Of a stretch of 64,000 bases of DNA, positions 40,482 to 57,077 are shown in pieces. The first letter of the stretch is position 1. The number at the start of each line of letters is the position of its first letter. Source of the stretch: Pseudomonadota bacterium (GTDB lineage Bacteria > Bdellovibrionota_F > JAHFAK01 > JBDREC01); NCBI GenBank assembly GCA_043820105.1, contig JBDREC010000029.1:1-64000 (forward strand), given 5' to 3'. Position numbers and translations under genes: made by a program. A model generated the notes under the pieces. The model worked only from the letters and a program-made list of their open reading frames with translations. It was not told where the DNA came from and searched no databases.

Positions 40482-40538
40482 TTGACTTTTTTAATAAAAT
40501 TTATTAGAATGATGTGAAATAGTCGGTAAAATTCACAT
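40482..40538 (+). promoter_or_regulatory. Sigma-70 promoter followed by an inverted repeat (possible operator)
   Basis: TTGACT-N17-TAGAAT, then ATGTGAA-N13-TTCACAT. Confidence 0.55.
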
Positions 40539-40552
40539 TGATTTGGTGGAAA

Positions 40553-41701
40553 ATGAAAAGATTTTTAGATTTATCAAAATTGCTTTCTGAAAAATCCCAT
40601 TTCTTATTTGGACCCAGGGCTTCAGGAAAGAGTTTTTTGATAGATTTGCAATTAAAAAATGCCTGTCAAATTGTTAGTTTGCTTGATACTGATGTCTATT
40701 TGAAATTGTTAGAGCGGCCTTCATTGATTCGAGAAATGATAGCAGCTTCTGGCAAATCTAATATAGTAATAGATGAAATTCAAAGAATTCCTGAATTATT
40801 AAATGAAGTTCATTTGCTGACAGAAAAACAGGACTATCGTTTCTTGTTAACTGGATCCAGCGCCAGAAAACTTAAAAGAAGTAATGCAAACATGCTGGCT
40901 GGCCGTGCCAGAAAAGCTGAGCTTTTTCCATTTTCTATACAGGAATTAAAAGCCGAAGCTAAGTTTGATTTAAATAAATTGCTTTGTTTTGGCGGCCTGC
41001 CTCTTGTTTATCTTTCAAAGGACCCTTATCATGAATTGCGTGATTATATTGATACATATTTACAAGAAGAAATCAGAGTTGAAGCAGGTGTAAGGAACCT
41101 TGCAAACTTTTCGAGATTTTTAAAAGTTGCTGCTTTATCAAATGCTGAAATAATTAATTATTCTAAAATGGGTAATGATGCTCAGGTTCATGGAAATACT
41201 ATTAGGGAATATTTTCAGATTTTGCAGGATACACTCTTGGCTTTTATTGTAGAGCCATGGCAAATGTCAAAAAAGCGTAAAGCGGTTCAAACGGCCAAAT
41301 TTTATTTTTTTGATACTGGAATAGCTAATGCACTTATTAATTTAAATCAACTTACTCCAGGGACTTCAGTTTATGGAAAAGCGTTTGAGCAACTAATAGC
41401 CCTTGAGCTAAGGGCTTATAAAAGTTACTTGCGACTGGATGATGAAATCTGTTTTTGGCGGACCAAAAATCAACATGAAGTAGATTTTATAATAGGTGAT
41501 CATACTGCCATTGAAGTAAAGGCAAGCTCAATTGTTAGTCCAAGGGACCAAAAAAGTCTTTTAAAGTTAAAAGAAGAAGGAATCATTAAAAATTATTTTA
41601 TTGTAAGCAATGATCCTGTTTCAATGAAATTTGATTCCGGAATCCAGCATCTGCCTTTAAATGAATTTGTAAATCATCTTTGGGGAGGTCAAATATTTTA
41701 A
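40553..41701 (+). CDS. AAA_14 + DUF4143 ATPase (C-terminal PD-(D/E)xK-like domain)
   Basis: GPRASGKS, IDEIQ, TGSSAR, LAGR, GGLP, KFYFFDTG, EVDF, IEVK motifs. Confidence 0.92.
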   Translation: MKRFLDLSKLLSEKSHFLFGPRASGKSFLIDLQLKNACQIVSLLDTDVYLKLLERPSLIREMIAASGKSNIVIDEIQRIPELLNEVHLLTEKQDYRFLLTGSSARKLKRSNANMLAGRARKAELFPFSIQELKAEAKFDLNKLLCFGGLPLVYLSKDPYHELRDYIDTYLQEEIRVEAGVRNLANFSRFLKVAALSNAEIINYSKMGNDAQVHGNTIREYFQILQDTLLAFIVEPWQMSKKRKAVQTAKFYFFDTGIANALINLNQLTPGTSVYGKAFEQLIALELRAYKSYLRLDDEICFWRTKNQHEVDFIIGDHTAIEVKASSIVSPRDQKSLLKLKEEGIIKNYFIVSNDPVSMKFDSGIQHLPLNEFVNHLWGGQIF

Positions 41702-41707
41702 TTTTTA

Positions 41708-44700
41708 TTATTTTACAAATGTAACCGCAATATTAAGATTATCACCATGGCCTTCTGCATCCATTCTTCTTAAGGCTTCATCTCTTAGTAAATTAGTGGC
41801 TTCTTCTGCTGTTTTGGCTGGTTTTATTATTTGGGCGACTTCTTTTGGTTTTACAAAATCCCATAAACCGTCGGAGGCTTGCACAAGCACAGCACCTTGA
41901 AGCATATTTATCTCGTGGAAACCATAAGCACCTGGATCAGCCTTTGGTTTTAAGGCGCGAGTAACTACATGACCCCATAATCGTTCAATTTCAGGAGTTA
42001 TTTCTTCACCTCTTTCTTCAAAGCCAGTAAGCAAAGAATGATCCTTAGTTGCATATACAACTTTTGCATCATGAATAAGGACAGCCTTAGAATCTCCAAA
42101 CCAAAACAATTCAGCTACTAATTGTCCGGGATTTCTTTCATAAATTCTTGCAAGGGAGAGGCATACTCCAGAACTTGCACCTATTTCCCCTTGATTTAAT
42201 AAGGTGTTATATTCTCCGATAACAGAGTCAAATATTCTTGTAACTGATGCTTCAGTAATGCCTTCTACTTTTTTGAGTTCTTCCATAATTCTTTTTGGAA
42301 TCAAATCAATTGCAATTTTCATGGCTCTGTCACCACTTCCTCCGCCTCCCATTCCATCAACTGAAAGAACATAATATTCACTGGTAGTCGCTGCTTTCCT
42401 TCTTAATTTAAAAATAGCGACTCCATCTTCATTTGGCCCCAATTTTTTAGGTCTTGCTATATCAGATAAGGCATAGCTTTCGAGCTTACCGTTTGAGGTT
42501 CCAGCGCTAAATTCGCCAAAGGCTCCAGTTACCTTTACGCCAAAAGAACCCTTTGTATTACGAATATTTTCAGCTGCGTTTCCGGTCGGTTTTGGATGTG
42601 TTAAGGGTGGAGCAATAATTTTAATGCTTCTTTCAGTTATTAAAGGGTCTATTTTCCTGTCGTAAAGACCGATAATATCACCATCGTTCAAATGAAAAAC
42701 CAAACTATTTCTATCTACTGTTCTTAGGTTCTGTCCGGCTGTTAAAATAGCGATAGGAAATTTTGATTGATGAAACTCAACAAATAATTCGCCGGAAGCA
42801 TTTTTAAAAACCCGAATGCTTGCTGTAGCATCAAGAGTCGTATCCGTTCTTATGGCGATTGGAATAAGATTGAGCTGTGAATCATGTGTGAAATATAAAC
42901 TTTCTCCAGGGTTTAAATTTCTTATTAATTCAGAAGGATTTATCGCTCCTTCAAAGCTGCTTTTATAAAAAGAGATTTCTAAAAAGTTTTCTCGTTCTGT
43001 TTCTCTGTCTGATTTATAGACCCTGTCTCCCTGTGCAAGAGCTTTTTCACTTCCAGAAACTAAAATGAATTTTTTTCCAGTAGCATCAACTAACACAGCT
43101 GGTTTATTCAAGCATCTTAGCGTTAATCCAGTTTCAGATCTGTAAAGAATATAGCTTGGATCACCGCTGGTTAATTTGAAATTTTCATCTAGGCGATATG
43201 TAAGTCCAACATCTAATTCCATTATATTTTCAGGTGTTATTCTTCTGAATCTTGGAGCGATACGATCAAGTAAATTTTCAAACACCTTACTTCCATATAA
43301 TCTATCAGGTCTGGTTACCTGGCTTTTATCTTTTACAAAAACATGCTTGTTCCAAAAGAGGACTTCAGGAGAATCCGCTTTTACAGTATCAACTCCATAT
43401 TTTCCAATAATAGCTGGGAAAGCAGGGGCATTATCACCAGGAAAGATGGTTTTAACTTCCGGTTTTACTGTAGCAGTGTTTTTTTCAATTATTACTGTTA
43501 GCTTGTTTGTTGCAGAGGCTTTGGCAAAGGCCTGAGCATCTACATATGCAATGCTTGCATCTGGTTCGAATTTGAATTCCGGGTTTGTGGCGATTCCATC
43601 TTCACCTTTAATTACTTCAAATTTACCAGTTTCCTTATTAAAAGACATTTCAGGATACCATGTTCCCTGAACGCCGTCAGCTTCTCCACGCTTACCGCCC
43701 TCTATTCTTGCTTCTGTCAAAATAATAGTGTCAGGAAAATTTGCTTTAATTGCTTCAAGCGAGGCCACTTGTGAATGTCCAAGGACAATTCCGTGTGGCA
43801 TTTTCACTACTATTGTAAATTCAGCTCGTCCATGCTGGTCGTATTTTATTGTTTCTGGAAGATGGGAAATGGCAAAATCAACAACAGCTTGTGCATCAGC
43901 AAAAAGATCACGATTGAATTGAGACCCTGCTGTTTGGCCATCCATATGTCTTGCCAGATGCTCTTTAACAGAAGAAGTTTCAATTTCTGAACTTTTAAAG
44001 CTTGCTGCTTGTAGTTCAATTCTTCCATCTCCACGAGTACTGCTTCTGACTGGCTCTATTAGTATTGTTTCACTTCTTAAGCGTGCTTTGTCAGATTTTT
44101 TAGAAGGATTTTCTGGTCGCGATTCTTCCTGATATTCATGGTTACCATCAAGCCATGCAATAATTCTGTCACTAGTTAAAATATCTGTAGTCATTCTTAA
44201 TAATGCACTTTCACTGTTTTTCAAAATATTGTAATTACTTTGTCTGGTGAGCAGTTCCTCATGTATGGCCAGGGCTTCACTTAATATGCTTAATTCATCA
44301 GCTCTGTGAATTTCTGGTTTCATTTGTAATACTATTTCTACAATTTTTTCCCAGTTTCCAGATTCTTTGAAAATCCTTAATAATGTCTTCTGCCTTGATA
44401 AAGGAAGGGACTCAAAAAAAGCATGCTTTTGTTCATGTTTAAACAGTTCAAGTTTTTCCTGGTCTGAAAGTTTTTTAAATTCTTCTGTAAAATAAATTTT
44501 TCGCAAACTTCTGTCATAATAAGCTTTAGCATCAAAAGAGTAATCTTCATGCTGTCTGTCAAGCCTTTGATCCTTGCTTTCTAAATACATTGCACTTTCT
44601 GCTAAAGGGGGTTCCATAAACTTTCCAATAGTAGCTGTGGCCATATGAAGTGCATAAAAGTTTATAAAGTTCATTAAAACGTCATTCCAAAAGCCTTTAA

Positions 44701-46819
44701 AGCTTGTATCTCCATGAAAAAGACCTTCTTTTAGTTCATCATATAATGTAAAGCCAACAGCTTGTGAACCTATTTCCATATTCGTTTTAAGAAATTTTGA
44801 AATTCTTGTTAGTTCATTTACTACTCTTTGCTGTATTACCCACTTGCCAGAGTTTTTTGCTACAAACTCTCTTAATACTAGTTTTGATCCATCCGTAAAA
44901 AAGGATGAGTGATGCATCATTTTTCCAATTGTATTATTGAACCCAAAACCAATAGCTCCTGCTATCATAAACATTTCAAAATATTTATAATATTCTGAGG
45001 GCAGTGAAGAAAGCATCTGTAAAAAAGATTTTCCCTGAATCATGCCATCAACAGGTGCTTTAAAGGCTGTGAAAAAAGCTGTGAAAACAAGTGTTTTACT
45101 TAAACCCTGCAGGGCTGTCGTTCTTAGCAATGATTGTCTAACAACCGTGGTTCCAAGCTGGGCTGCTCTGGCTGCTTTATAAGTTTTAAAAACAAGGCTT
45201 ACTCCTGTTTTTGCAATTACGCCACCGCAATAAAAAAGAGCTGCTTCTATGATTATAGATTTTGAAAACTCAGCGACAGTTTGAAAAGTTTTTAAGTCCT
45301 TGGCAACTGAAGCCAGTGAAATGAATTTTTGCATGTTTTGCTTGGTCATTAGAGTTGAGTCTTTAAAAGATTCTGGGACACTTAGTTCTTTTGCAATAAT
45401 TGAGAAAATCTTATTTGAATATATATCTTCAGCTAGCGCATCAACATGGGCATCAAATTCTTCAGCACTTGGAAAAAAAGCTTTTTGTTTTAATAAAGTT
45501 TTTTTCGCCTTAGAAAAAGCGTCACTTAAGAGTTCTTCTCTTTTTGCTAATTCGATTTTTTCTTCATAAATGCTTATTACTGGATTAATTATTTCTTTTA
45601 ATACAGTTAAACCACCCTGTAATGCTCCAACTGAAAATCTTTGAGCAAATTCATCAAGTTTATTCCAGGTGCTATCAGTATCTTTTATTCTTCCAAATCT
45701 GTATTCTATTGCCTTGATAATTGCTTCAGCTGCCACTCCCTTCAGGGCTTTAACAGAGCCCCAGGCAATTTTTTCAAGATCTATATTAGCGTGATTTTTA
45801 TCAAAGTAGGTCATAAGGGCAAGATGCGCATCTTCATAGTATTTTGAAAAATCAATTGCATGTTTTACTCTTTTAACTGCAATGGGTTCAGTGTCTTCTG
45901 AGGTTTTTCCATATAGATTTGTCACTTCGGATCTGTCTGAATTAAGGTCATAGGCAATTTCATTTAGTGCCATTATTCTACTATTTGCAGCATGTTCATA
46001 TCCATTTGAAGCGTGCTTTGCTTCAATATAATCCATTTTTATCAGGCTTGCTAAAACAAGATTAACAGATTCTCTGGTTTTTTCTAAAAAATATGTTTCA
46101 AGGTTAGCTATCTGTTCATCAAGAAAGGCTCCGAACTCTGCTTCTTCACCATCTTTTAAAATACCCTTTGTCTGTTTCAGTCCTTTATATGAAGCATAAA
46201 AATCGCCATTTAAATAATCTGTGACAGCTTGATAATAGGTGGCGAACAATACTCTGCCTTCTTGCCTGTGTTTTTCTTTTTTTTGTTTGGCCTTCTCAAG
46301 GTTCTTTTGTTTTGCTATCTCAATAGCGGAAATTGCTTCTTCTTTGGCTTTTTGTGTTTCTTCATATTTATCAATAAGCTCATCTGCGTTGGAAGCAAGA
46401 ATCCAGGATGGAGAAAGTTCTTCCAAAATACTTGTAAAACCCATGAACCAGGATTGAGCTGTATTAATTTTATTTGCAAAAGTTCCCTTATCTGAACTAT
46501 CTATTTCCATGATGATTTTTGACAGCATATCTTTATTACTGGCTCTGTGGATTGAGAAATAAGCCTTTTTTGTGAATTCCCATTTGTTTGTTTTTTCTAA
46601 ACGATTTTTAAGCGTTTCATATCTTTTTTCATAATATCTTATTAATTCAATATCTCTTGATATTGCAGATTCTTCAATGCCAAGTGTTTGTGCTTTTAAT
46701 GACAGCTCATCACTTATAGCTGAAAAACTTTTTGAATATAGAATTTTGCATGGGATTAGAATGTAAATGAATGCAGCAAGTAATGTTAGTATATGGCAAT
46801 TAAATTTTTTCATAAACAT
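41708..46819 (-). CDS. Giant modular secreted protein ending in a PP2C-type phosphatase
   Basis: Signal peptide, helical region, hydrophobic segments, HEQKH, and C-terminal NED/DGMGG/GDS/DHS/SDGLWD/DN motifs. Confidence 0.85.
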   Translation of the reverse strand: MFMKKFNCHILTLLAAFIYILIPCKILYSKSFSAISDELSLKAQTLGIEESAISRDIELIRYYEKRYETLKNRLEKTNKWEFTKKAYFSIHRASNKDMLSKIIMEIDSSDKGTFANKINTAQSWFMGFTSILEELSPSWILASNADELIDKYEETQKAKEEAISAIEIAKQKNLEKAKQKKEKHRQEGRVLFATYYQAVTDYLNGDFYASYKGLKQTKGILKDGEEAEFGAFLDEQIANLETYFLEKTRESVNLVLASLIKMDYIEAKHASNGYEHAANSRIMALNEIAYDLNSDRSEVTNLYGKTSEDTEPIAVKRVKHAIDFSKYYEDAHLALMTYFDKNHANIDLEKIAWGSVKALKGVAAEAIIKAIEYRFGRIKDTDSTWNKLDEFAQRFSVGALQGGLTVLKEIINPVISIYEEKIELAKREELLSDAFSKAKKTLLKQKAFFPSAEEFDAHVDALAEDIYSNKIFSIIAKELSVPESFKDSTLMTKQNMQKFISLASVAKDLKTFQTVAEFSKSIIIEAALFYCGGVIAKTGVSLVFKTYKAARAAQLGTTVVRQSLLRTTALQGLSKTLVFTAFFTAFKAPVDGMIQGKSFLQMLSSLPSEYYKYFEMFMIAGAIGFGFNNTIGKMMHHSSFFTDGSKLVLREFVAKNSGKWVIQQRVVNELTRISKFLKTNMEIGSQAVGFTLYDELKEGLFHGDTSFKGFWNDVLMNFINFYALHMATATIGKFMEPPLAESAMYLESKDQRLDRQHEDYSFDAKAYYDRSLRKIYFTEEFKKLSDQEKLELFKHEQKHAFFESLPLSRQKTLLRIFKESGNWEKIVEIVLQMKPEIHRADELSILSEALAIHEELLTRQSNYNILKNSESALLRMTTDILTSDRIIAWLDGNHEYQEESRPENPSKKSDKARLRSETILIEPVRSSTRGDGRIELQAASFKSSEIETSSVKEHLARHMDGQTAGSQFNRDLFADAQAVVDFAISHLPETIKYDQHGRAEFTIVVKMPHGIVLGHSQVASLEAIKANFPDTIILTEARIEGGKRGEADGVQGTWYPEMSFNKETGKFEVIKGEDGIATNPEFKFEPDASIAYVDAQAFAKASATNKLTVIIEKNTATVKPEVKTIFPGDNAPAFPAIIGKYGVDTVKADSPEVLFWNKHVFVKDKSQVTRPDRLYGSKVFENLLDRIAPRFRRITPENIMELDVGLTYRLDENFKLTSGDPSYILYRSETGLTLRCLNKPAVLVDATGKKFILVSGSEKALAQGDRVYKSDRETERENFLEISFYKSSFEGAINPSELIRNLNPGESLYFTHDSQLNLIPIAIRTDTTLDATASIRVFKNASGELFVEFHQSKFPIAILTAGQNLRTVDRNSLVFHLNDGDIIGLYDRKIDPLITERSIKIIAPPLTHPKPTGNAAENIRNTKGSFGVKVTGAFGEFSAGTSNGKLESYALSDIARPKKLGPNEDGVAIFKLRRKAATTSEYYVLSVDGMGGGGSGDRAMKIAIDLIPKRIMEELKKVEGITEASVTRIFDSVIGEYNTLLNQGEIGASSGVCLSLARIYERNPGQLVAELFWFGDSKAVLIHDAKVVYATKDHSLLTGFEERGEEITPEIERLWGHVVTRALKPKADPGAYGFHEINMLQGAVLVQASDGLWDFVKPKEVAQIIKPAKTAEEATNLLRDEALRRMDAEGHGDNLNIAVTFVK

Positions 46820-47174: not shown

Positions 47175-49565
47175 GTGCTTTTTAAAAAAACATTAATCGT
47201 ACTATATCTAATACTAATTTCATTGGCTTTATTTTCTTGCGGCATTACTGATTGGTTTTCAGGAGCTTCATTAGAAGACAGTGAAAATACCTCTGCTCTA
47301 TATAATCCAGATGAACTAACCTTTATGGAAATAGCTGGAGCAAGCCTTGGTATTCCTGCATCTACAATGTCTAATGAAATTGATGTAACAATGAGAGTGC
47401 ACAATGAAAACAATATTGATGTAAGTGTTGATGGAGCTGGCATTAAAGTTGAATATGATGAAGATGACGCTGAATTTGCAAAAGGGGTTGAAGTTCAATT
47501 CGGGGACGAGGAAGATGATTCTGAAGTTTCTGTTGAAGGAAGTATGTTTCTTTCCTTGGCGATTCCTGGCATGGGTCTTGATGGCTATGAAGATTCAGCT
47601 ATTCCAGGTGCTATACCTGGGGCAATACCAGGGGCTATTCCAGGAGCAATCCCTGGCGCAATTCCAGGAGCTATACCGGGTGCGATTCCTGGAGCTATCC
47701 CAGGAGCCATCCCAGCTTTTTATAAATTTACAACTGATGCTAGCTTTACAATGATGGCTTTTATTGTTTTAGTTGATGCCCAAGGTAACCTTATCTCAGG
47801 GCCATTTGACCTGGCCATGTACCTAACAGAAGATGAAGGATACATTGTTTTTATTATAACACCTGAATTGTTTGGAACAAGCATCTCAACAGGATCAAGG
47901 ATTTTCATATCATTATATGCAGTAGATGATACTGGAAACGGTATAACTTTAATAATTGAAACAGAAGAAGGTGAGGAAGAAGTGCTTTTGGGTTCTGGAG
48001 TTCTTGATGCTATTGAAGGTCAAGAAGTTCTAGAAACGGAAGCAGGAGATGGAGATGGCGACGGTGACGGAGAAGGTGATGGCGACGGTGATGGGGATGG
48101 AGATGGTGATGGTGATGGTGATGGAGATTTTGATCCGGATCCAGAGCCTACATTTCCTACATATTCCTGGAGCCAAGCTACTGGAGGTTCAGGCAACAAT
48201 GATGGAGCAATGGGCGTAACAGTTGATGCTTCTGGAAATTTAATTGTTGTCGGCTTTTTCGAAGGTTCCGCAGTTGACCTAGACCCAACAGATGGGACAG
48301 ATAATCACAACTCAAATGGAGGAAAAGATTTTTTTATAACAAAAATAAATTCTAATGGAACATATGCCTGGTCAAAATCTATTGGTGGTTATTATGATGA
48401 TATTGCCTATGATGTAGTTACAGATACTTCAGAAAACATTTATGTAACTGGAAATTTTTCCTCGTTTGATGGAGCTATAGATTTTAATCCAGATGGTGAG
48501 GCAGATTATAAATGGGCCATGGGAGACTCTGATGTATTTGTCACAAAAAGAAGTTCTGATGGATCCTATATCGATACTTATACTTATAATTATGATGCTT
48601 ACTCCTATTCATTAGGACTTGATATTGAGATAACATCTAGTGGTCAATTAATCATTTTAAGTGATCACAGCTCTGAAGGTTCACTGGTTGATCTTATAAG
48701 ACTTAATTCTTCTCTTGAATCGTTGTGTGAAAGCTCATATGCTTATTGGGGAGGTTTTAATTGGTGGTCAGGTCTAAATGAAAATCCAAATATCGCAATA
48801 ACTCTAGATTCTAGCGACAATCTGTATTTCACTGGATCTTTTTCATACTCCCAAGAATTTGACCCAATCAATGAAGGTTCATTTCTTACATCAAATGGCG
48901 GTGAGGATATCTTTATATCAAAACTTGAGATAGATGATATCAATTGTTTTAATGAACTTTGGACAGAGCAAATAGGTGGAACAGATGATGATTCCGCATC
49001 TGCTATAAAAGTTGATCCAAGTGGAAATGTTTATGTTGCAGGTCAATTTGCTTCAACTGATGTTAACTTTGACTTATATGGTGGCTCAGATCCTCACTCA
49101 TCTCTTGGCGGATCTTATTTTTCAGTTGATGCTTATTTGACAAGCTTTAACCCTGAAACTTCCACACATAACTGGACCAGGACTTGGGGTTCTGCTGAGG
49201 GTGATGAATATGTTGGAGGCATTTTTTATAATTCAAGTGGCCATATTTATACCACTGGTAATTTCGATGCTGATGCTGATTTTGATCCTGGTGCGCAGAT
49301 AGACCCTCATTTAACAAATGGTTCAAATGATATCTTCTTTAATAAAATAGGTGTTGATGGAAGCTATTATTGGACCTATACCTTTGGCGGTTTAGAATGT
49401 GATTACTCTTATGATATTACAATGTCTGGCGACACTTTGTATCATGGTGGAGAATATTATTCACCTTCAGTTGATTTTGATTTTACAGATGGTAATGATC
49501 CCATTACAAATGGAGATTTGGGATCTTATACTAACTTATGGTATCAGAAAACTGTGTTGGAGTAG
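47175..49565 (+). CDS. Acidic surface lipoprotein with AIPG and GD repeats and SBBP-like beta-propeller repeats
   Basis: LFSC lipobox; repeats such as VDASGNLIVVG, TDTSENIYVTG, VDPSGNVYVAG, DIFISK. Confidence 0.85.
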   Translation: MLFKKTLIVLYLILISLALFSCGITDWFSGASLEDSENTSALYNPDELTFMEIAGASLGIPASTMSNEIDVTMRVHNENNIDVSVDGAGIKVEYDEDDAEFAKGVEVQFGDEEDDSEVSVEGSMFLSLAIPGMGLDGYEDSAIPGAIPGAIPGAIPGAIPGAIPGAIPGAIPGAIPGAIPAFYKFTTDASFTMMAFIVLVDAQGNLISGPFDLAMYLTEDEGYIVFIITPELFGTSISTGSRIFISLYAVDDTGNGITLIIETEEGEEEVLLGSGVLDAIEGQEVLETEAGDGDGDGDGEGDGDGDGDGDGDGDGDGDFDPDPEPTFPTYSWSQATGGSGNNDGAMGVTVDASGNLIVVGFFEGSAVDLDPTDGTDNHNSNGGKDFFITKINSNGTYAWSKSIGGYYDDIAYDVVTDTSENIYVTGNFSSFDGAIDFNPDGEADYKWAMGDSDVFVTKRSSDGSYIDTYTYNYDAYSYSLGLDIEITSSGQLIILSDHSSEGSLVDLIRLNSSLESLCESSYAYWGGFNWWSGLNENPNIAITLDSSDNLYFTGSFSYSQEFDPINEGSFLTSNGGEDIFISKLEIDDINCFNELWTEQIGGTDDDSASAIKVDPSGNVYVAGQFASTDVNFDLYGGSDPHSSLGGSYFSVDAYLTSFNPETSTHNWTRTWGSAEGDEYVGGIFYNSSGHIYTTGNFDADADFDPGAQIDPHLTNGSNDIFFNKIGVDGSYYWTYTFGGLECDYSYDITMSGDTLYHGGEYYSPSVDFDFTDGNDPITNGDLGSYTNLWYQKTVLE
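47598..47717 (+). repeat. Intragenic (AIPG)9-AIPA repeat
   Basis: Ten 12-bp units, each with a different DNA sequence. Confidence 0.95.
48045..48128 (+). repeat. Intragenic Gly-Asp dipeptide repeat linker
   Basis: GDGDGDGDGEGDGD... in the translation. Confidence 0.9.
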
Positions 49566-49847: not shown

Positions 49848-50480
49848 ATGGCTAGAAGAAAAACCCCAAAATCATTACAAACAGTACACATTACGAAAAG
49901 GTGTATTAATCGCCAATATTTATTGAATCCAAAAGAAAATTGGAATGAGATTGTATCTTGGCTCAACTGCCTTCATCTTTTTTTTAATATCTTACTTCAT
50001 CATGTCCTTGTGCTTGGAAATCACCTTCATATTATTTGCACACCTATGGAAGATAATATTGGAAATGCTATGGGTTACACTTTTAGTAATTTAGCAAGAT
50101 ACTTAAATTATAAAAATAATAGAATAAACCAAATATTTGGAACTAGATATTTCCCTACAGTAATAAAAGATGATGAGCATTTGATAACTACGATTAGATA
50201 TCTTTATCAAAATCCCCTTAGAGCTGGCATAATTAATAATCCTTTTTCTTATAAATACTCAAGTTTAGGTTTCTATTTTGGCTGTAATAGTGATGGATTA
50301 ATAGTCACTCCAGATAATGTAACAAATTCCTTAATTAGAAAAGATCAATATGGCTTTGATACCTTTGAAAAATTGATCCAAGATCAGCTATTAGAAGAAA
50401 ATCTATCAAAAATAAGAAAGGCTCTTAGAAAATCTGAATTTAAGTTTAATCAAGATTATTATGAAAATTCAAAAAAGTGA
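49848..50480 (+). CDS. REP-associated tyrosine transposase-like protein (Y1 HUH)
   Basis: HITKRCINR, GNHLH (HUH), RYLYQNPLRAG (catalytic Tyr), YKYSS. Confidence 0.88.
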   Translation: MARRKTPKSLQTVHITKRCINRQYLLNPKENWNEIVSWLNCLHLFFNILLHHVLVLGNHLHIICTPMEDNIGNAMGYTFSNLARYLNYKNNRINQIFGTRYFPTVIKDDEHLITTIRYLYQNPLRAGIINNPFSYKYSSLGFYFGCNSDGLIVTPDNVTNSLIRKDQYGFDTFEKLIQDQLLEENLSKIRKALRKSEFKFNQDYYENSKK

Positions 50481-51215: not shown

Positions 51216-51494
51216 ATGGAAAAGTTAATGGATCTAATTGAAAAATTGGTTGAAGGCTTATTTTGGCTTTTAATAGCTGCATCTCCTGCTTTAATAGGCG
51301 CAATCATTGGAGGAATTTTTTACATTAAATTTAATGGAAATCTTACCTCAATAATCCTCTTTACTATGTTTGTAATAATGGGTGCTATAGTAGGTGGTTT
51401 TTGGGCAGAAAAAGTTAGAAAAAAACATGGAACATCTAAATTTTATTCAAAAGTAATAGCAACTCCTGAACTTGATAAAGAAGAGAATAACTAA
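51216..51494 (+). CDS. Small two-TM membrane protein
   Basis: 92 aa with two Gly-rich hydrophobic helices. Confidence 0.75.
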   Translation: MEKLMDLIEKLVEGLFWLLIAASPALIGAIIGGIFYIKFNGNLTSIILFTMFVIMGAIVGGFWAEKVRKKHGTSKFYSKVIATPELDKEENN

Positions 51495-51638: not shown

Positions 51639-54600
51639 ATGGCAAAAAAACGCAGGATACAGAAACTATTTTTATCTTATCTTTTAAAATTACTTCTAGT
51701 CTTTTGCCTTTTCCATGCTTCATTTATTAGCTCTTTTGAAAATCAAGAGAATCTCAGGGAAAAAATCATTGAAAAATATAGATCGAACAAAAGCCAAACT
51801 TGTACTGAATTTGTAGATTTAGCAAGAGAAAATCCTAAAAAGGCTGCATATCTTTTGAATCTTTTACTTAAAAATCGAGAAAGTTATGTGATTGCAGGAC
51901 ATTTATCTCAGCATTTAAATGATAACAATCAAGAAATCTTTATAACCCTCATTTCTGCAAATGAACAAAATGGTCAAAAAGCTGAACTAGCACTTGCCCA
52001 ATCTATGCAAATCTATACAAAAAGGAAAGATGCAAGTGGCGGCTTATTACTTTTAGAAACACAAGAACAGTACAAAAGAAATGACTTTAAAAAAATCGCT
52101 GAAAATCATGACAGTAAAGAAGCACTTTCAAGCCAAGATTTAATCGAATATATTGAAGGCATTTCATTAACAAAAGATAGAGAAGAAAAAATAGCTTTAG
52201 CTGCTCAAGTTATAACAGAGGAATTAAAAAGATGCAGTTTTGCCAGGAACACAAATAAAAATGAGCTTGGCCTATTTACTAAGCAACTTTATCGAGCAAC
52301 CCTCCTATTAGATGATTTCTCAAACACACTAAACTATGATTCAGCAAACTTGCTTTACAAAATATTAAACTTAGATAAGTCATTAGGTCTTCAAATAATA
52401 AAACAATTACCAGATTTTTCAATTTCTCAAAATAAAACCCGTGAAATGATTTCCAACTTAAGAAATATTTTAGGTGCTGATAGCTATTTTAGAAATGTTT
52501 ATGACGAGCTTTCCTCAGATGTTCAAAACTTTATTGAAGATGAATCGCAACAATTCGTTAGTTCAGGTATATCAAAAGTAGAAATATCTAAAATAAGATC
52601 AAAACTTGATTCATTTTTTGGATCAATCCCAGCATTAAACAAAAGCAAGTATTCTCATATTAGTTTAAGACTTGAACAGATTTTAAACAAACTAGAATTT
52701 GAAAACCTAGATAAAGGTTCAGTCAAAGACTTACTGGCTGAAGCTTCAAAATGGATTCTGGGACTGGAAATTGCCTCTTTAGCAAATCAAAGACAATACA
52801 ACTCTAGCTATTTTAATTCTCTAAGCGAATCAAGAGAGTTTACAGCTGAAACAGAAGAAGCCCTAGGTTATTTAAAAGAACGAATGTCTGGCTGCTTTAA
52901 TATTTTGGATAAAGCAGAAGCCTTATTCTTTGATGATGAAATAGAAATGGCAACAGCGATTTTTCAATTTGGTGTATCAGCACTTTCACTTGTTCAGCAA
53001 AGCATTGAAATAGAAGAATTGCTAGATAGAGCCAGAAAACATAAAAACAAAACCCCTAACACAAGCCAGACCTTTGAGAGGCTTACAAAAGCAAGAGATA
53101 GTATTCAAGAAGCTTTTTTCTCATTAATTTTAGCAAATGAAGATTCTGAAATAGCTAAGGCAGAAGCCTTATTGAAAAAAGCTGAGGGATTATATGAATC
53201 TTCTGTTGAAAAAATACACTCAACAATAGCCGGAACAATTCAAGATGTTGGCTGGCGTGAAATCGAAATCTATGAAAGTCTCAAACAAGGCACATATGAA
53301 ACAGCAAAATTCGTTGTCACCACAGGAATGATGGTTGCTTTATTTTCTGTTGCTGGAACAATTGGTTCAATAGCTGGAACTGTTGCTGCATCAGCCATAA
53401 TACCAATTTCCACAACAGCTGCTGGCATTACAAATATAATAGTTGCTTTAGGCGTTGAATCCCTAATTTTCTTGATCGGTCACAAGAGTATTGAAGCCCT
53501 GACAATTTTCACAGAAGATCTTTTGGCAGGAAGAGGACTTGCTCATTCGCCACTAGAAGTAATTCCTCAAAGCACTGAAGCCTTTGCCTGGGAATATGCT
53601 TCAACTGTAGTTAGTTTAGGCGTTTTAAAAGCATTTAATCATGCTGGTCGCCTTGCAATGCAAAAGGGTTTACTAACAAACAATGCCATAGGCCATGGAG
53701 CTACTATCCTTTTTGAAATGTCTGGAATGGGCATGGGGGGCGTAGCTGTTCAAACAATGATGTTTGCTATAGGTGATGAACCGGTAGTATTAATGAGAAA
53801 CGGAAAACCCATTCAAGCCATGGCTTTATCTGACATTTTATCTACAGATAACATATATTCTTCAATAAAAGGTTCTTTTGGAACTGTAATAAGCTTTAGA
53901 ATTGGAAGCTTTTTGGCAAGGCCCTTAATTCAAAGGATAACCTTGCCATTTCATTTGGCCATGGCTCATGAAAGACTTAGAAACTTAGATGCTCAGATGG
54001 ACAGGCAGAGAAAAAAACTAGAAAAAATCACAGATACAAGAGAAAGACTAGCTCTTGAGGCCATAATAAATGCAAATGAAAAAGTAACTTTAGAAAACAT
54101 TATCCTTGAATTAATAAAGGGCGGAGAAGCAAACAATGAAGCTCTAAAAATTGCAAGAGAAGCATACGCAAGATGTGTTGCCTTTGAGATGCTGATTACC
54201 AAAGGAAATCTGGCCACAGAACCCGTAAGATTAAGTATTTCTGAAGCCGGAGAAGTGTTTTTAAAATTAGGCAATTTCAAGTTTAAAATAAATGCTGCAG
54301 TAAACGGTGAATATTACGTTCTTGATCATTTGGTTCCTCCTGTTGCAATTCATAAAGATGCACTCGTTGAAATGGCGAACATTTCAAAAGAAGGTATTAT
54401 TAAGGAAAGTGAAATTCCTTATTTGCAGCTTGGAAGGATGGTTGATGGAAATTTAATTATAGATCAAACCATAAAACCTGATACTGCTTCTGGAAAAGTA
54501 ATATCAGTTGGTGATGGTACAAAAACAAATCTATTATATGATGCAATTAGCGCTTATCAGCAGAATTCTGCTTTAAGAAATGATGCTGTTTTGATGATCA

Positions 54601-57077
54601 GAGAATATTTTGGTGAAGGCACTGATACTAACCTTATATTGGAAGCTGAAGCCTTAAGTGGCCCTGATTCAGCTTATATTTTGCCAAGATTTCATGACAG
54701 AGCTAATATCAAAAAAGCAGAAGGGCAAATTATAATTGAAGGTCATAATCACAGAGTAACAGACGCTAAACCTAGCCCAGCTGATTTTAAGGCCCGTGGA
54801 CTTGGTGAAACAGCAATAGTTTCTTTGTGGAACTTTTCAGTTGGGACCTTATCTTTTAAACCTTTTGGGGGTTTGGCTACAGAACCATCGGGCGCGTATC
54901 GAGGCGGCGTCAGTATTGAAGCCAGAGACCAATTCATTAAAGATTCCCTTGTAAATTTAAACTCAGGGAGAAGCATTCAAATTGTGGGAGATGGCCCGCA
55001 AGAAAGAGTTGCCCAAATAAAAAAATTATCAAGAGGAATCTATGCACTAGTTCCTTGCCAGGCGGAAGTGAATATTTACAGTTCATCCGGCAAGCATCAT
55101 TTTATTATTAAAAATGGAAAGGTTGAAACATACGATAAGAGTGGAAAATTGCTTTATGTCCAGATTAGTGGCAGTTTTATTCTTGAAACCGGATATAAAA
55201 TCCAAATGCCGGATGGAAGCTTTGTGACTTTCAGTAGACCGGAATTAGCGATTGATGATGTCGTTACAATTAAGGGATCTTCTGAAAAACATGTTATAGT
55301 TGAAGTACAGGAAACAAGGCAGAAAGCAATTGTAAGACCCGATGTTCCAGGTTTTGACCCAACAAGTCATGAGGCAGTTTATAGACATGTGCCTCTTGCT
55401 GAAATAAAAAGAACATATCCTTATATTGAAATTGAAGGAGCAAAAAGGGATTCCTTATGGATAGGAAGAAACACGGTAATTGGTGGGATTGATTTCAGAC
55501 ACAACTATATAAGTGTCAATCATGCCAGAATATTTTTTTATGAAGGACAATATTCTATTTATGACCAGGGATCCACCAATGGAACTTTTATTCGCAGCCA
55601 CGGGGAATATGACTTCCGAGAAGTCCCCAGACACCCCCCAACAGTACTCAAACCAGGAGATCAGTTAAAATTATCAAGGTTTGGGGAGATTTTTGAAGTA
55701 CCTCCTGATATTTACAGGGGAGAAACCAATTGGGAAAGATCAGATAGTGTCCAAAAACAACCAGTTGTTCCTAAACGTCAGGAGGACAATGGATTTCTAA
55801 GTATTGGGGAACTTCAAGGGCAAGCGGATGCATTCTGGGAGGGGTATAGGTCTAGCAAGACTGTAGTGCACCAGATAGGGATTGACGCCCAATTGGTTAT
55901 GCAGACAGAACTTAATACCTTCGAAGGAATTAGTTTAGGTGATATTGTTTATGTGCAAAGGCCAACTGGAGGAGTAGTGGAGTCTGGCTGGGAAGTAATA
56001 TTTATCTCAAGTACCGGAAAAATGACAGTTAGAAAGCTGGTTGCTTTTAATCGCAATGGTAATGTTGTTTTTAGAAGAGCCAAGAAAGGGGAAAGAGTTG
56101 AAGAAATTTCAAATTTATCTGTTAATCAAAACCTTTGGATTTCAGATGTTATAGAAGGAGCAGCGGGTGACGGACGCACTCAATTATTGGCTATACATCC
56201 TGCAGCGGCTCATGCCAGAAGAAGATATAAAATTGAAAGTGATCAAGCAGGAGATGTGCAAATTCCTATTGCCAGAGCCAGGGAATTGTTTCTGGTAGCT
56301 CCAACACAAGCAAGAGTTGGCAACTGCTATCTGATAGCAGCCTTTAACGCAATGATGGCTGATCCAAACTTTTTGTCAACAATCGCCTTTTCAATTAAAG
56401 AACTTCCCAATGGTGATTTTATTGTCAAAATTCCTCTTGGTTCATCATCCGGACACGCTGTTTATGTAAGCAGACGCGATATTCAGAGTCAGTGGAACAG
56501 TAATTATTTAGGCCCTAAAAGGGGTCATGAATTTAGAAGAGACTTGAGAGAAGCTCTTGATCCGCCAAGTGGAAGCACAGGTTGGAAGGTGCTTGAAGCT
56601 GCATATATGAAGGAATTAATTGGAGAAGTTGATAGAGCCAGAATTGAAGGTGGCTATGGGCACAGGGCATTAGAATTATTTTTTGGAAATAATTTTGTAA
56701 ATAAAATTTATATTGGTTCCTCAAGACAGGCTCTGGCAGAATCCGGATATACAAGAGATGATACTCTACGGTTTTTAAATAACTTTAACAACTCAAGAAC
56801 CATTGCAACTGTTAATACTAGATCAGCTCCTTCTGGCAAGCGAAACCATCAGGGTGATCAAGAAGATGACAGTTCAATATATTTTGAGGTTGGGGGACAT
56901 GAACTTGTTTATAGACATGCCTATGCTATTAAAAAGGTCGACAGACATAGTCAAAGAGTTATTGTTATTAACCCTCACAGACCAGAAGTTGAGATGGAAA
57001 TGAGCTTTACGGATTTCATGCTTGCTTTTTCTGACATTTCAGCAGGTGAAATAAAATTTGAAAATCTCCTAAGATAA
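51639..57077 (+). CDS. Giant modular secreted protein: JAMM/MPN + FHA + calpain-like (C2) cysteine protease
   Basis: Signal peptide; hydrophobic helices; HNHRVTDAKPSPAD; IGR..ISVNHA..DQGSTNGT; QARVGNCYLIAA...HAY...INP. Confidence 0.85.
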   Translation: MAKKRRIQKLFLSYLLKLLLVFCLFHASFISSFENQENLREKIIEKYRSNKSQTCTEFVDLARENPKKAAYLLNLLLKNRESYVIAGHLSQHLNDNNQEIFITLISANEQNGQKAELALAQSMQIYTKRKDASGGLLLLETQEQYKRNDFKKIAENHDSKEALSSQDLIEYIEGISLTKDREEKIALAAQVITEELKRCSFARNTNKNELGLFTKQLYRATLLLDDFSNTLNYDSANLLYKILNLDKSLGLQIIKQLPDFSISQNKTREMISNLRNILGADSYFRNVYDELSSDVQNFIEDESQQFVSSGISKVEISKIRSKLDSFFGSIPALNKSKYSHISLRLEQILNKLEFENLDKGSVKDLLAEASKWILGLEIASLANQRQYNSSYFNSLSESREFTAETEEALGYLKERMSGCFNILDKAEALFFDDEIEMATAIFQFGVSALSLVQQSIEIEELLDRARKHKNKTPNTSQTFERLTKARDSIQEAFFSLILANEDSEIAKAEALLKKAEGLYESSVEKIHSTIAGTIQDVGWREIEIYESLKQGTYETAKFVVTTGMMVALFSVAGTIGSIAGTVAASAIIPISTTAAGITNIIVALGVESLIFLIGHKSIEALTIFTEDLLAGRGLAHSPLEVIPQSTEAFAWEYASTVVSLGVLKAFNHAGRLAMQKGLLTNNAIGHGATILFEMSGMGMGGVAVQTMMFAIGDEPVVLMRNGKPIQAMALSDILSTDNIYSSIKGSFGTVISFRIGSFLARPLIQRITLPFHLAMAHERLRNLDAQMDRQRKKLEKITDTRERLALEAIINANEKVTLENIILELIKGGEANNEALKIAREAYARCVAFEMLITKGNLATEPVRLSISEAGEVFLKLGNFKFKINAAVNGEYYVLDHLVPPVAIHKDALVEMANISKEGIIKESEIPYLQLGRMVDGNLIIDQTIKPDTASGKVISVGDGTKTNLLYDAISAYQQNSALRNDAVLMIREYFGEGTDTNLILEAEALSGPDSAYILPRFHDRANIKKAEGQIIIEGHNHRVTDAKPSPADFKARGLGETAIVSLWNFSVGTLSFKPFGGLATEPSGAYRGGVSIEARDQFIKDSLVNLNSGRSIQIVGDGPQERVAQIKKLSRGIYALVPCQAEVNIYSSSGKHHFIIKNGKVETYDKSGKLLYVQISGSFILETGYKIQMPDGSFVTFSRPELAIDDVVTIKGSSEKHVIVEVQETRQKAIVRPDVPGFDPTSHEAVYRHVPLAEIKRTYPYIEIEGAKRDSLWIGRNTVIGGIDFRHNYISVNHARIFFYEGQYSIYDQGSTNGTFIRSHGEYDFREVPRHPPTVLKPGDQLKLSRFGEIFEVPPDIYRGETNWERSDSVQKQPVVPKRQEDNGFLSIGELQGQADAFWEGYRSSKTVVHQIGIDAQLVMQTELNTFEGISLGDIVYVQRPTGGVVESGWEVIFISSTGKMTVRKLVAFNRNGNVVFRRAKKGERVEEISNLSVNQNLWISDVIEGAAGDGRTQLLAIHPAAAHARRRYKIESDQAGDVQIPIARARELFLVAPTQARVGNCYLIAAFNAMMADPNFLSTIAFSIKELPNGDFIVKIPLGSSSGHAVYVSRRDIQSQWNSNYLGPKRGHEFRRDLREALDPPSGSTGWKVLEAAYMKELIGEVDRARIEGGYGHRALELFFGNNFVNKIYIGSSRQALAESGYTRDDTLRFLNNFNNSRTIATVNTRSAPSGKRNHQGDQEDDSSIYFEVGGHELVYRHAYAIKKVDRHSQRVIVINPHRPEVEMEMSFTDFMLAFSDISAGEIKFENLLR

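Follow-up and report, generated by a model that had tools for sequence, protein, structure and literature searches.

Prok-JAB (PF14464) proteins are JAB peptidases of prokaryotes that trim ubiquitin-like tails or take them off, and the eukaryotic JAMM deubiquitinases AMSH, Rpn11, CSN5 and BRCC36 share the signature E...HxHx7SxxD. The element described here is a JAB/MPN+-like module, probably a true member of the JAB superfamily on the sequence evidence given below, which lies inside a giant protein of 1812 amino acids (aa) encoded on contig JBDREC010000029.1 of assembly GCA_043820105.1. Positions 1-64,000 of the forward strand of this contig were analyzed, and this whole 64-kb stretch is referred to as the window. 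According to passages of Zhang et al. 2012 (PMC3482391), the peptidases that process large modular toxins lie N-terminally or immediately ahead of the C-terminal toxin domain and those that are toxins themselves are C-terminal, and part of Iyer et al. 2017 (PMC5512222) describes the RadC clade as lacking a ubiquitin-tail groove and proposes a nucleic-acid role for it. The favored reading of the module, held at slightly less than even confidence, is that of an active zinc JAB peptidase that would release the C-terminal cassettes from a giant protein that is toxin-like and probably exported.

The module and its host gene comprise the following features of the window:
51639..57077, + strand: host open reading frame (ORF) of 1812 aa (P0002), from the ORF list and its translation, encoding one of three paralogous giant proteins in the genome.
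54321..54878, + strand: JAB/MPN+-like module, about residues 895-1080, from hhalign comparison to RadC and Prok-JAB with controls.
54405..54413, + strand: candidate catalytic Glu, E923 or E925, in KESEIP; in the alignment the paralog has GEMELP and keeps both.
54516..54656, + strand: predicted helical insertion that parts the Glu hairpin from the His strand, about residues 960-1006, from low-confidence AlphaFold2 helices and from colinearity after its removal.
54744..54785, + strand: JAMM zinc motif HNHRVTDAKPSPAD, H1036-N-H1038-x7-S1046-x2-D1049, residues 1036-1049, placed by script.

Frame-1 translation of 54330-54870 yields IIIEGHNHRVTDAKPSPADFKA, and the stretch KESEIPYLQLGR, residues 922-933 at 54402-54437, carries the candidate upstream Glu residues. 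The original prediction, made from the DNA sequence, had named this motif, its coordinates and its host protein, all of which are confirmed by the translation and by scripted placement of HNHRVTDAKPSPAD and KESEIPYLQLGR; its candidate upstream Glu also holds, with E923 and E925 both present and both kept in the paralog. The JAMM signature E-x(n)-H-x-H-x7-S-x2-D is present, with an unusually long Glu-to-HxH spacing of about 111-113 residues.

Read from stop to stop, the genome has 10,797 ORFs of 60 aa or more (1.75 M residues), and the bare pattern H.H.{7}S..D occurs four times in them. All four occurrences fall in ORFs of 150 aa or more, of which there are 2,764; when these were shuffled 100 times, the pattern came up 1.34 times on average and at most 5 times. 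The four are the 1812-aa protein, its paralog, a JAB-like protein on contig C46 and one chance-like occurrence; the six frames of the 64-kb window hold a single one. The bare motif alone is no significant evidence, and it is regarded as going beyond chance because it is conserved in homologues and because the profile similarity exceeds that of motif-only shuffles.

An exhaustive phmmer search with residues 870-1250 against 1.84 billion representative sequences returned four matches, namely the query itself, P0003, P0005 and P0004. P0003 is a paralog in the same genome (1648 aa, 38% identity, E 8.5e-28) and P0005 is a metagenomic fragment of 452 aa (30% identity, E 1.3e-4). P0004 is a low-complexity sequence and was discarded as spurious. 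The module family is nearly orphan, with three real members among the 1.84 billion representatives, and the clusters of all three are singletons. Word-indexed searches with the module region and with P0005 found nothing beyond the query itself, pattern scans combined with the three-sequence family alignment (A2) confirmed no relatives among 55 pattern matches in species genomes and 298 in metagenome contigs, and no match to the module was found in 60 other genomes searched. When 61 relatives and the 4 genomes that represent the phylum were searched by hidden Markov model (HMM) or by protein sequence, matches came from the own genome only, except for one match in genome G010 (E 0.003) that lies outside the module. 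The phylum is represented by four sampled species genomes, and the module is present only in the one that encodes the 1812-aa protein (3.8 Mb, 32% G+C, 93% complete). The metK of this genome shows 61-72% identity to that of metagenome-assembled genomes of Desulfobacterota type and related ones, which places it no more than broadly.

Residues H1036, H1038, S1046 and D1049 are invariant in all three members, which are 29-40% identical in the three-member alignment. The motif reads HNHVNNGTEPSALD in the paralog P0003 and HTHLGTTEASSRD in the fragment P0005, where the spacer is 6 residues instead of 7. The Glu pair is conserved in both members that cover that region (KESEIP versus GEMELP), and P0005 ends before it.

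Profile comparisons were made by hhalign with A2 against profiles built from domains of other genomes (28 Prok-JAB and 30 RadC domains) and not taken from the HHpred databases, and the clade placement is based on these RadC and Prok-JAB profiles only. A2 matched the 30 RadC domains with a probability of 76.7% and P 2.1e-5 over 45 columns, the alignment spanning the helix ahead of the His strand ('yiLPRf' versus 'v.PRe') plus HNH...PS..D, and matched the 28 Prok-JAB domains with P 3.3e-4 over 40 columns. For scale, the bona fide Prok-JAB and RadC profiles match one another with P 3.7e-7, and six random three-sequence subsamples of Prok-JAB matched RadC with P 3.9e-6 to 0.062, five of the six more weakly than A2; the family thus scores as a genuine clan member of the same depth would. 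The N-terminal half alone (two sequences) matches the Prok-JAB beta1-alpha1-Glu hairpin in the expected register (P 0.035). E923 is paired by hhalign with the Prok-JAB consensus Glu, and the spacing from E925 to G932 equals the E-to-G spacing of the template, 7.

The columns of the approximately 47-residue insertion were also deleted from the two full-length members, at four choices of boundary. The shortened alignment matched Prok-JAB in one colinear stretch of approximately 100 columns, with P 8e-6 and a range of 3.4e-6 to 4.2e-5 over the four boundary choices, and RadC with P 3.3e-7 to 1.1e-6, and the Glu, H, H, S and D residues landed on conserved columns of the template. None of 60 full column shuffles scored above 17.1 (observed 37.2). 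When the four motif columns were kept in place, none of 45 shuffles came up to the observed scores, the highest being 28.9 with RadC (observed 37.2) and 26.0 with Prok-JAB (observed 29.9), and with the insertion removed none of 50 did so, the highest being 22.1 with RadC (observed 43.8) and 23.2 with Prok-JAB (observed 35.7); sequence context therefore adds to the motif. The paralog P0003 approaches the Pfam models for Prok-JAB (E 0.027-0.028, 16 bits, cut-off 25) and RadC (E 0.46, 12 bits, cut-off 22.1). A language-model look-up, with low scores of 0.77-0.78 that serve as a lead only, placed Prok-JAB, DUF4329 and Toxin-JAB1 clusters among the nearest. In an hmmsearch of the family HMM against all genome ORFs together with the 28 Prok-JAB sequences, only the two paralogs were significant; three Prok-JAB sequences stood among the approximately 60 weak matches listed, aligned on the motif and too weak to use. 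A DUF4329 search for a Tox-JAB-2 profile gave one weak match in 301 genomes. The JAMM/MPN+ module of the original prediction is most likely real, on its conserved residues and its controlled, colinear alignment to Prok-JAB and RadC, with a putative MPN fold and metal site; no Pfam JAB model scores above its cut-off.

Both paralogs were located by BLASTP against the genome ORFs:
G000:C88:27580-32553 (L004:3578-8551), - strand: C88 paralog P0003, 1648-1658 aa depending on the start.
G000:C1:16708-21381 (L005:3706-8379), - strand: C1 paralog, 1557 aa.

The C88 paralog has residues 9-1083 in common with the 1812-aa protein by BLASTP, which takes in the N-terminal module and the JAB-like module, and its last 260 aa give a weak match to EndoU_bacteria (E 0.0025, below cut-off). 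The C1 paralog shares residues 133-849 and 1177-1811, with two FHA stretches and a calpain-like end, and has no JAB-like module. The order of cassettes is thus JAB-like, FHA and calpain-like in the 1812-aa protein, JAB-like and EndoU-like in the C88 paralog, and FHA, FHA and calpain-like in the C1 paralog. The constant part of all three, as predicted, is an N-terminal signal or anchor, a helical region of approximately 530 aa and a hydrophobic hairpin. By this pattern of presence and absence among paralogs, the module is a movable cassette, flanked by a constant N-terminal membrane module on one side and by enzyme ends that vary on the other. As judged from sequence, the giant-protein family is lineage-restricted, with three members.

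The module occupies an internal position, with the C-terminal cassettes following it, in each of the two proteins that have it, and this is the ground for the processing-peptidase role proposed for it. By the positional rule set out in passages of PMC3482391 the module would count as a processing peptidase, and the two ends, calpain-like and EndoU-like, as payload. Residues of approximately 895-1080 would then form a highly divergent, catalytically complete JAB/MPN+ module in which H1036, H1038 and D1049 hold a zinc ion, E923 or E925 activates water, S1046 stabilizes the intermediate, and the helical insertion of approximately 47 residues interrupts the core after the Glu hairpin and ahead of the His strand. 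Such a module would most likely cut its own protein, or a sister protein, and free the C-terminal payload in the manner of a releasing peptidase of modular toxins. What we infer here is the fold, the binding of zinc, a chemistry of the peptidase and not the nuclease kind, cleavage of the protein by itself, and export. Autoprocessing by the module is plausible and, of the two roles offered by the original prediction, is the better on positional grounds only.

The remaining features of the 1812-aa protein are:
51672..51728, + strand: N-terminal hydrophobic segment, residues 12-30, following MAKKRR (Kyte-Doolittle peak 2.0), with an equivalent in both paralogs; a putative Sec signal peptide or signal anchor.
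51729..54188, + strand: N-terminal module, about residues 31-850, mostly helical plus a hydrophobic block, common to the three paralogs.
53310..53492, + strand: bilobed hydrophobic hairpin, residues 558-618, two predicted membrane helices (Kyte-Doolittle peaks 1.79 and 2.07), kept in both paralogs.
55461..55673, + strand: FHA domain (phosphothreonine reader), residues 1275-1345 (PF00498, E 4.3e-10, 40.3 bits, cut-off 20.7).
56100..57074, + strand: calpain-like cysteine protease core, residues 1488-1812, from a Pfam match below cut-off, a PDB profile search and Foldseek.

The N-terminal module is 31-33% identical to the C88 and C1 paralogs by BLASTP and matched no known family in the Pfam scan; the language-model look-up, giving leads only, listed a PT-TG cluster (0.84) and unnamed clusters of up to 0.90. 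Hydropathy rises above 1.5 nowhere besides residues 12-30 and 558-618. The C-terminal domain matches Pfam Peptidase_C2 with E 0.0019 and 17.8 bits, below the cut-off of 23.8. Its PDB profile search gave calpain-5 as the best match (E 5e-4), with calpains making up six of seven matches, and Foldseek with its AlphaFold2 model (predicted local distance difference test (pLDDT) 54) listed calpains for all chains to rank 28 (best E 1.9e-4, template modeling score about 0.35). The proposed triad is C1563 (GNCY), H1760 (RHAY) and N1778 (INPH), and relatives keep the motifs QARVGNCYLIAA, RHAYAI and VINPH. By motif and model, the domain is a predicted calpain-like core with a Cys-His-Asn triad in calpain motifs. 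As in the calpain core (PF00648, family C2), the QxxVGNC, HAY and NP[HW] motifs occur in calpain order; the domain differs from that family in scoring below the Pfam cut-off and in the low confidence of its model. A 720-aa protein at C10:46576-48735 (+ strand; L159:2577-4736), which carries GDCY, NHS and NPH motifs, aligns over its C-terminal approximately 240 residues with the calpain-like domain at 23% identity, and the metagenomic protein P0006 (224 aa) is 35% identical to this domain.

The C46 protein mentioned above is a giant orphan of 1215 aa (G000:C46:66684-70349, - strand; L161:2682-6329) that has a canonical-looking JAB motif, FHSHPDGYGGPSQPD, at its extreme C-terminus. It matches Prok-JAB by hhalign with P 3.7e-5 and has no Pfam match, and its C-terminal position is that expected of a toxin-type JAB.

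Pfam scans of neighboring genes found no Ubl (ubiquitin-like protein), E1 or E2 gene beside the 1812-aa gene or either paralog. The three loci have no common neighbor, except that an AAA_14/DUF4143 ATPase ORF occurs at this locus and at the C1 locus; the two genes (window 40538-41701, + strand; G000:C1:26810-27964, - strand) are 40% identical, lie within about 5-10 kb of these two of the three paralogs and probably belong to a multi-copy gene. A 1703-aa ORF at 41708-46819 of the window (- strand), 5 kb upstream of the FHA-bearing protein, has as its only match a C-terminal PP2C piece (E 1.2e-5). Upstream of the giant gene and on the same strand, a 796-aa protein with SBBP beta-propeller repeats is encoded at 47175-49565 (+ strand), and two small unannotated ORFs, 49848-50480 and 51216-51494, lie between the two genes. 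The genome has 15 Ser/Thr kinase (Pkinase) matches, seven of them inside ORFs of 1949-1993 aa, a large giant-kinase family. Elsewhere, on the 6.8-kb contig C100 (3488-4093 and 5667-5960, both - strand), a ThiF/E1-like ORF (459 aa, E 7.6e-34) adjoins a sub-threshold Prok-JAB-like ORF (421 aa, E 0.00135); these may be an E1-JAB pair unrelated to the giant-protein module.

Several observations weigh against the favored reading, some of them at the level of the fold. Neither the whole protein nor the module matched a JAB model of Pfam or NCBIfam at E up to 1-10, and PDB sequence searches with the protein and with the family profile found no JAMM chain. The AlphaFold2 model of the module, made with the three available sequences, has a pLDDT of 39, and the Foldseek matches listed for it are all Cas9 chains with E values no better than 0.02, a level of noise; at this low confidence the model draws the insertion as three helices, and only its predicted order of helices and strands is in agreement with a JAB core. 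The module lacks the Pro that RadC and most of the listed Prok-JAB sequences have after HxH. The deletion of the insertion was chosen after the hypothesis had been formed, and masking the four motif columns raised the hhalign P to 0.5 and removed the signal. The absence of a curated model at threshold, the low-confidence structure, the loss of signal on masking, and a bare pattern expected 1.3 times per genome also speak for the improbable alternative that the motif belongs to a fold other than JAB or to an inactive relic, its JAB similarity being a conserved short motif in a fortuitous context. The masking test does not discriminate, because the same masking abolishes the matches of true Prok-JAB subsamples, and this alternative is opposed by the failure of all 45 and all 50 motif-only shuffles to reach the observed scores, by approximately 100 colinear columns that include the Glu region, and by the retention of all five catalytic positions at 29-40% identity. 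Other points against the favored reading concern function. The C1 paralog has no JAB-like module in its architecture, no conserved downstream immunity-like gene was found beside any of the three paralogs, and the abundance of Ser/Thr kinases means that the FHA domain may mark cytoplasmic signaling, not export. In passages of PMC3482391 the Tox-JAB-1 and Tox-JAB-2 toxin domains, like RadC, are described as possibly nucleases and as lacking the ubiquitin-tail groove, and the releasing peptidases named in its abstract do not include JAB.

It is unlikely, though by no means far-fetched, that the module is itself a payload enzyme that would act on target-cell proteins or nucleic acids and not on its own protein. 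JAB domains are toxin modules of polymorphic toxins, possibly nucleases, in the passages of PMC3482391 cited, the RadC clade, with its proposed nucleic-acid role (in the part of PMC5512222 cited), gives the best profile match, the presence and absence of cassettes among paralogs resembles payload shuffling, and Toxin-JAB1 and DUF4329 clusters appear in the language-model look-up at low scores; the internal position of the module in both carriers speaks against a payload role, as do the lack of a Pfam match to PF15659 or PF14220 and of a conserved immunity-like neighbor. That lack of immunity-like genes beside the paralogs instead suits a distinctly unlikely arrangement in which the C-terminal half would be cytoplasmic and the protein a membrane-anchored signaling or cell-fate device, its FHA domain reading phosphothreonine made by the cell's own kinases and controlling the JAB-like and calpain-like proteases. 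The solid FHA match, the 15 Pkinase matches with seven in ORFs of 1949-1993 aa, and the PP2C-ended 1703-aa protein 5 kb upstream are in keeping with such a device. The hydropathy profile is not, since the N-terminal segment and the two-helix hairpin are the only segments above 1.5 and the N- and C-terminal parts would therefore share a side of the membrane, and the EndoU-like end of the C88 paralog looks toxin-like. Very improbable is a JAMM deubiquitinase or Ubl isopeptidase directed against ubiquitin conjugates of a eukaryotic target cell, in spite of the intact E...HxHx7Sx2D signature and the exported, effector-like appearance of the protein. Eukaryotic JAMM deubiquitinases carry the Ins-1 segment where the insertion of the module sits, which also counts for this role. 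Against it, the nearest profiles are RadC and Prok-JAB, and RadC and toxin JABs lack the ubiquitin-tail groove in the passages of PMC3482391 and PMC5512222 cited, signs of a host-associated lifestyle are limited to three ankyrin matches in the genome, and no VipB/TssC match was found in the 93%-complete genome. With the RadC clade as nearest profile and no Ubl, E1 or E2 neighbors, the deubiquitinase-like role put forward by the original prediction finds no support. Its most specific form, a zinc isopeptidase that would strip ubiquitin or Ubl from proteins of a eukaryotic target cell and be delivered with the calpain-like protease and the phosphothreonine reader on one polypeptide, is remote.

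The module is probably an orphan JAB-like cassette with an insertion, set in a new architecture of membrane hairpin, JAB, FHA and calpain-like protease, and no paper on a protein with JAB, FHA and calpain parts was found in the open-access collection searched. If the favored reading is right, the module is a JAB-superfamily enzyme too divergent for curated models and with a large helical insertion, a zinc JAB joins the short list of proteases that process or arm giant modular proteins from within, and the three paralogs offer a tractable natural experiment in which cassettes are present or absent by copy. A family of just three members gives little leverage for comparison, and nothing ties the module to ubiquitin; the deubiquitinase option would be new.

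Among known JAB systems, RadC (PF04002) is the best profile match, and the module shares with it the H-N-H, the Pro-Ser before xxD and the 'PR' helix motif ahead of the His strand. The RadC 'HNHPSG', found in 26 of 30 sampled RadC domains, is not continued in the module, which has RVT in place of PSG; the module also has the insertion of approximately 47 residues, PF04002 does not match the 1812-aa protein, and the RadC format of approximately 230 aa is replaced by one embedded in a giant membrane protein. On the HNHPSG...PSxxD signature together with a PF04002 match, the module does not appear to be a member of the RadC clade. It is colinear with Prok-JAB over approximately 100 columns, from beta1-alpha1 through Glu, HxH and SxxD, and differs in having HNH not HSH, in lacking a Pro after HxH, and in a Glu-to-His distance of about 111-113 residues against 61 template columns. 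The likeness to eukaryotic JAMM deubiquitinases is by signature alone, and the nearest profiles of the module are prokaryotic. The toxin JABs Tox-JAB-1 and Tox-JAB-2/DUF4329, as described in passages of PMC3482391, are likewise JAB-fold modules in very large, cassette-shuffled proteins; they are C-terminal and paired with immunity genes, whereas the module here is internal, has no conserved neighbor and matches neither toxin JAB family in Pfam (PF15659, PF14220). The caspase-like CPD of MARTX and clostridial toxins, from the same passages, is a cysteine protease of unrelated fold and chemistry as against a zinc JAB with putative self-cleavage, and it follows the same logic as that proposed for the module, that of an internal protease placed ahead of or between payload cassettes of an exported giant protein.

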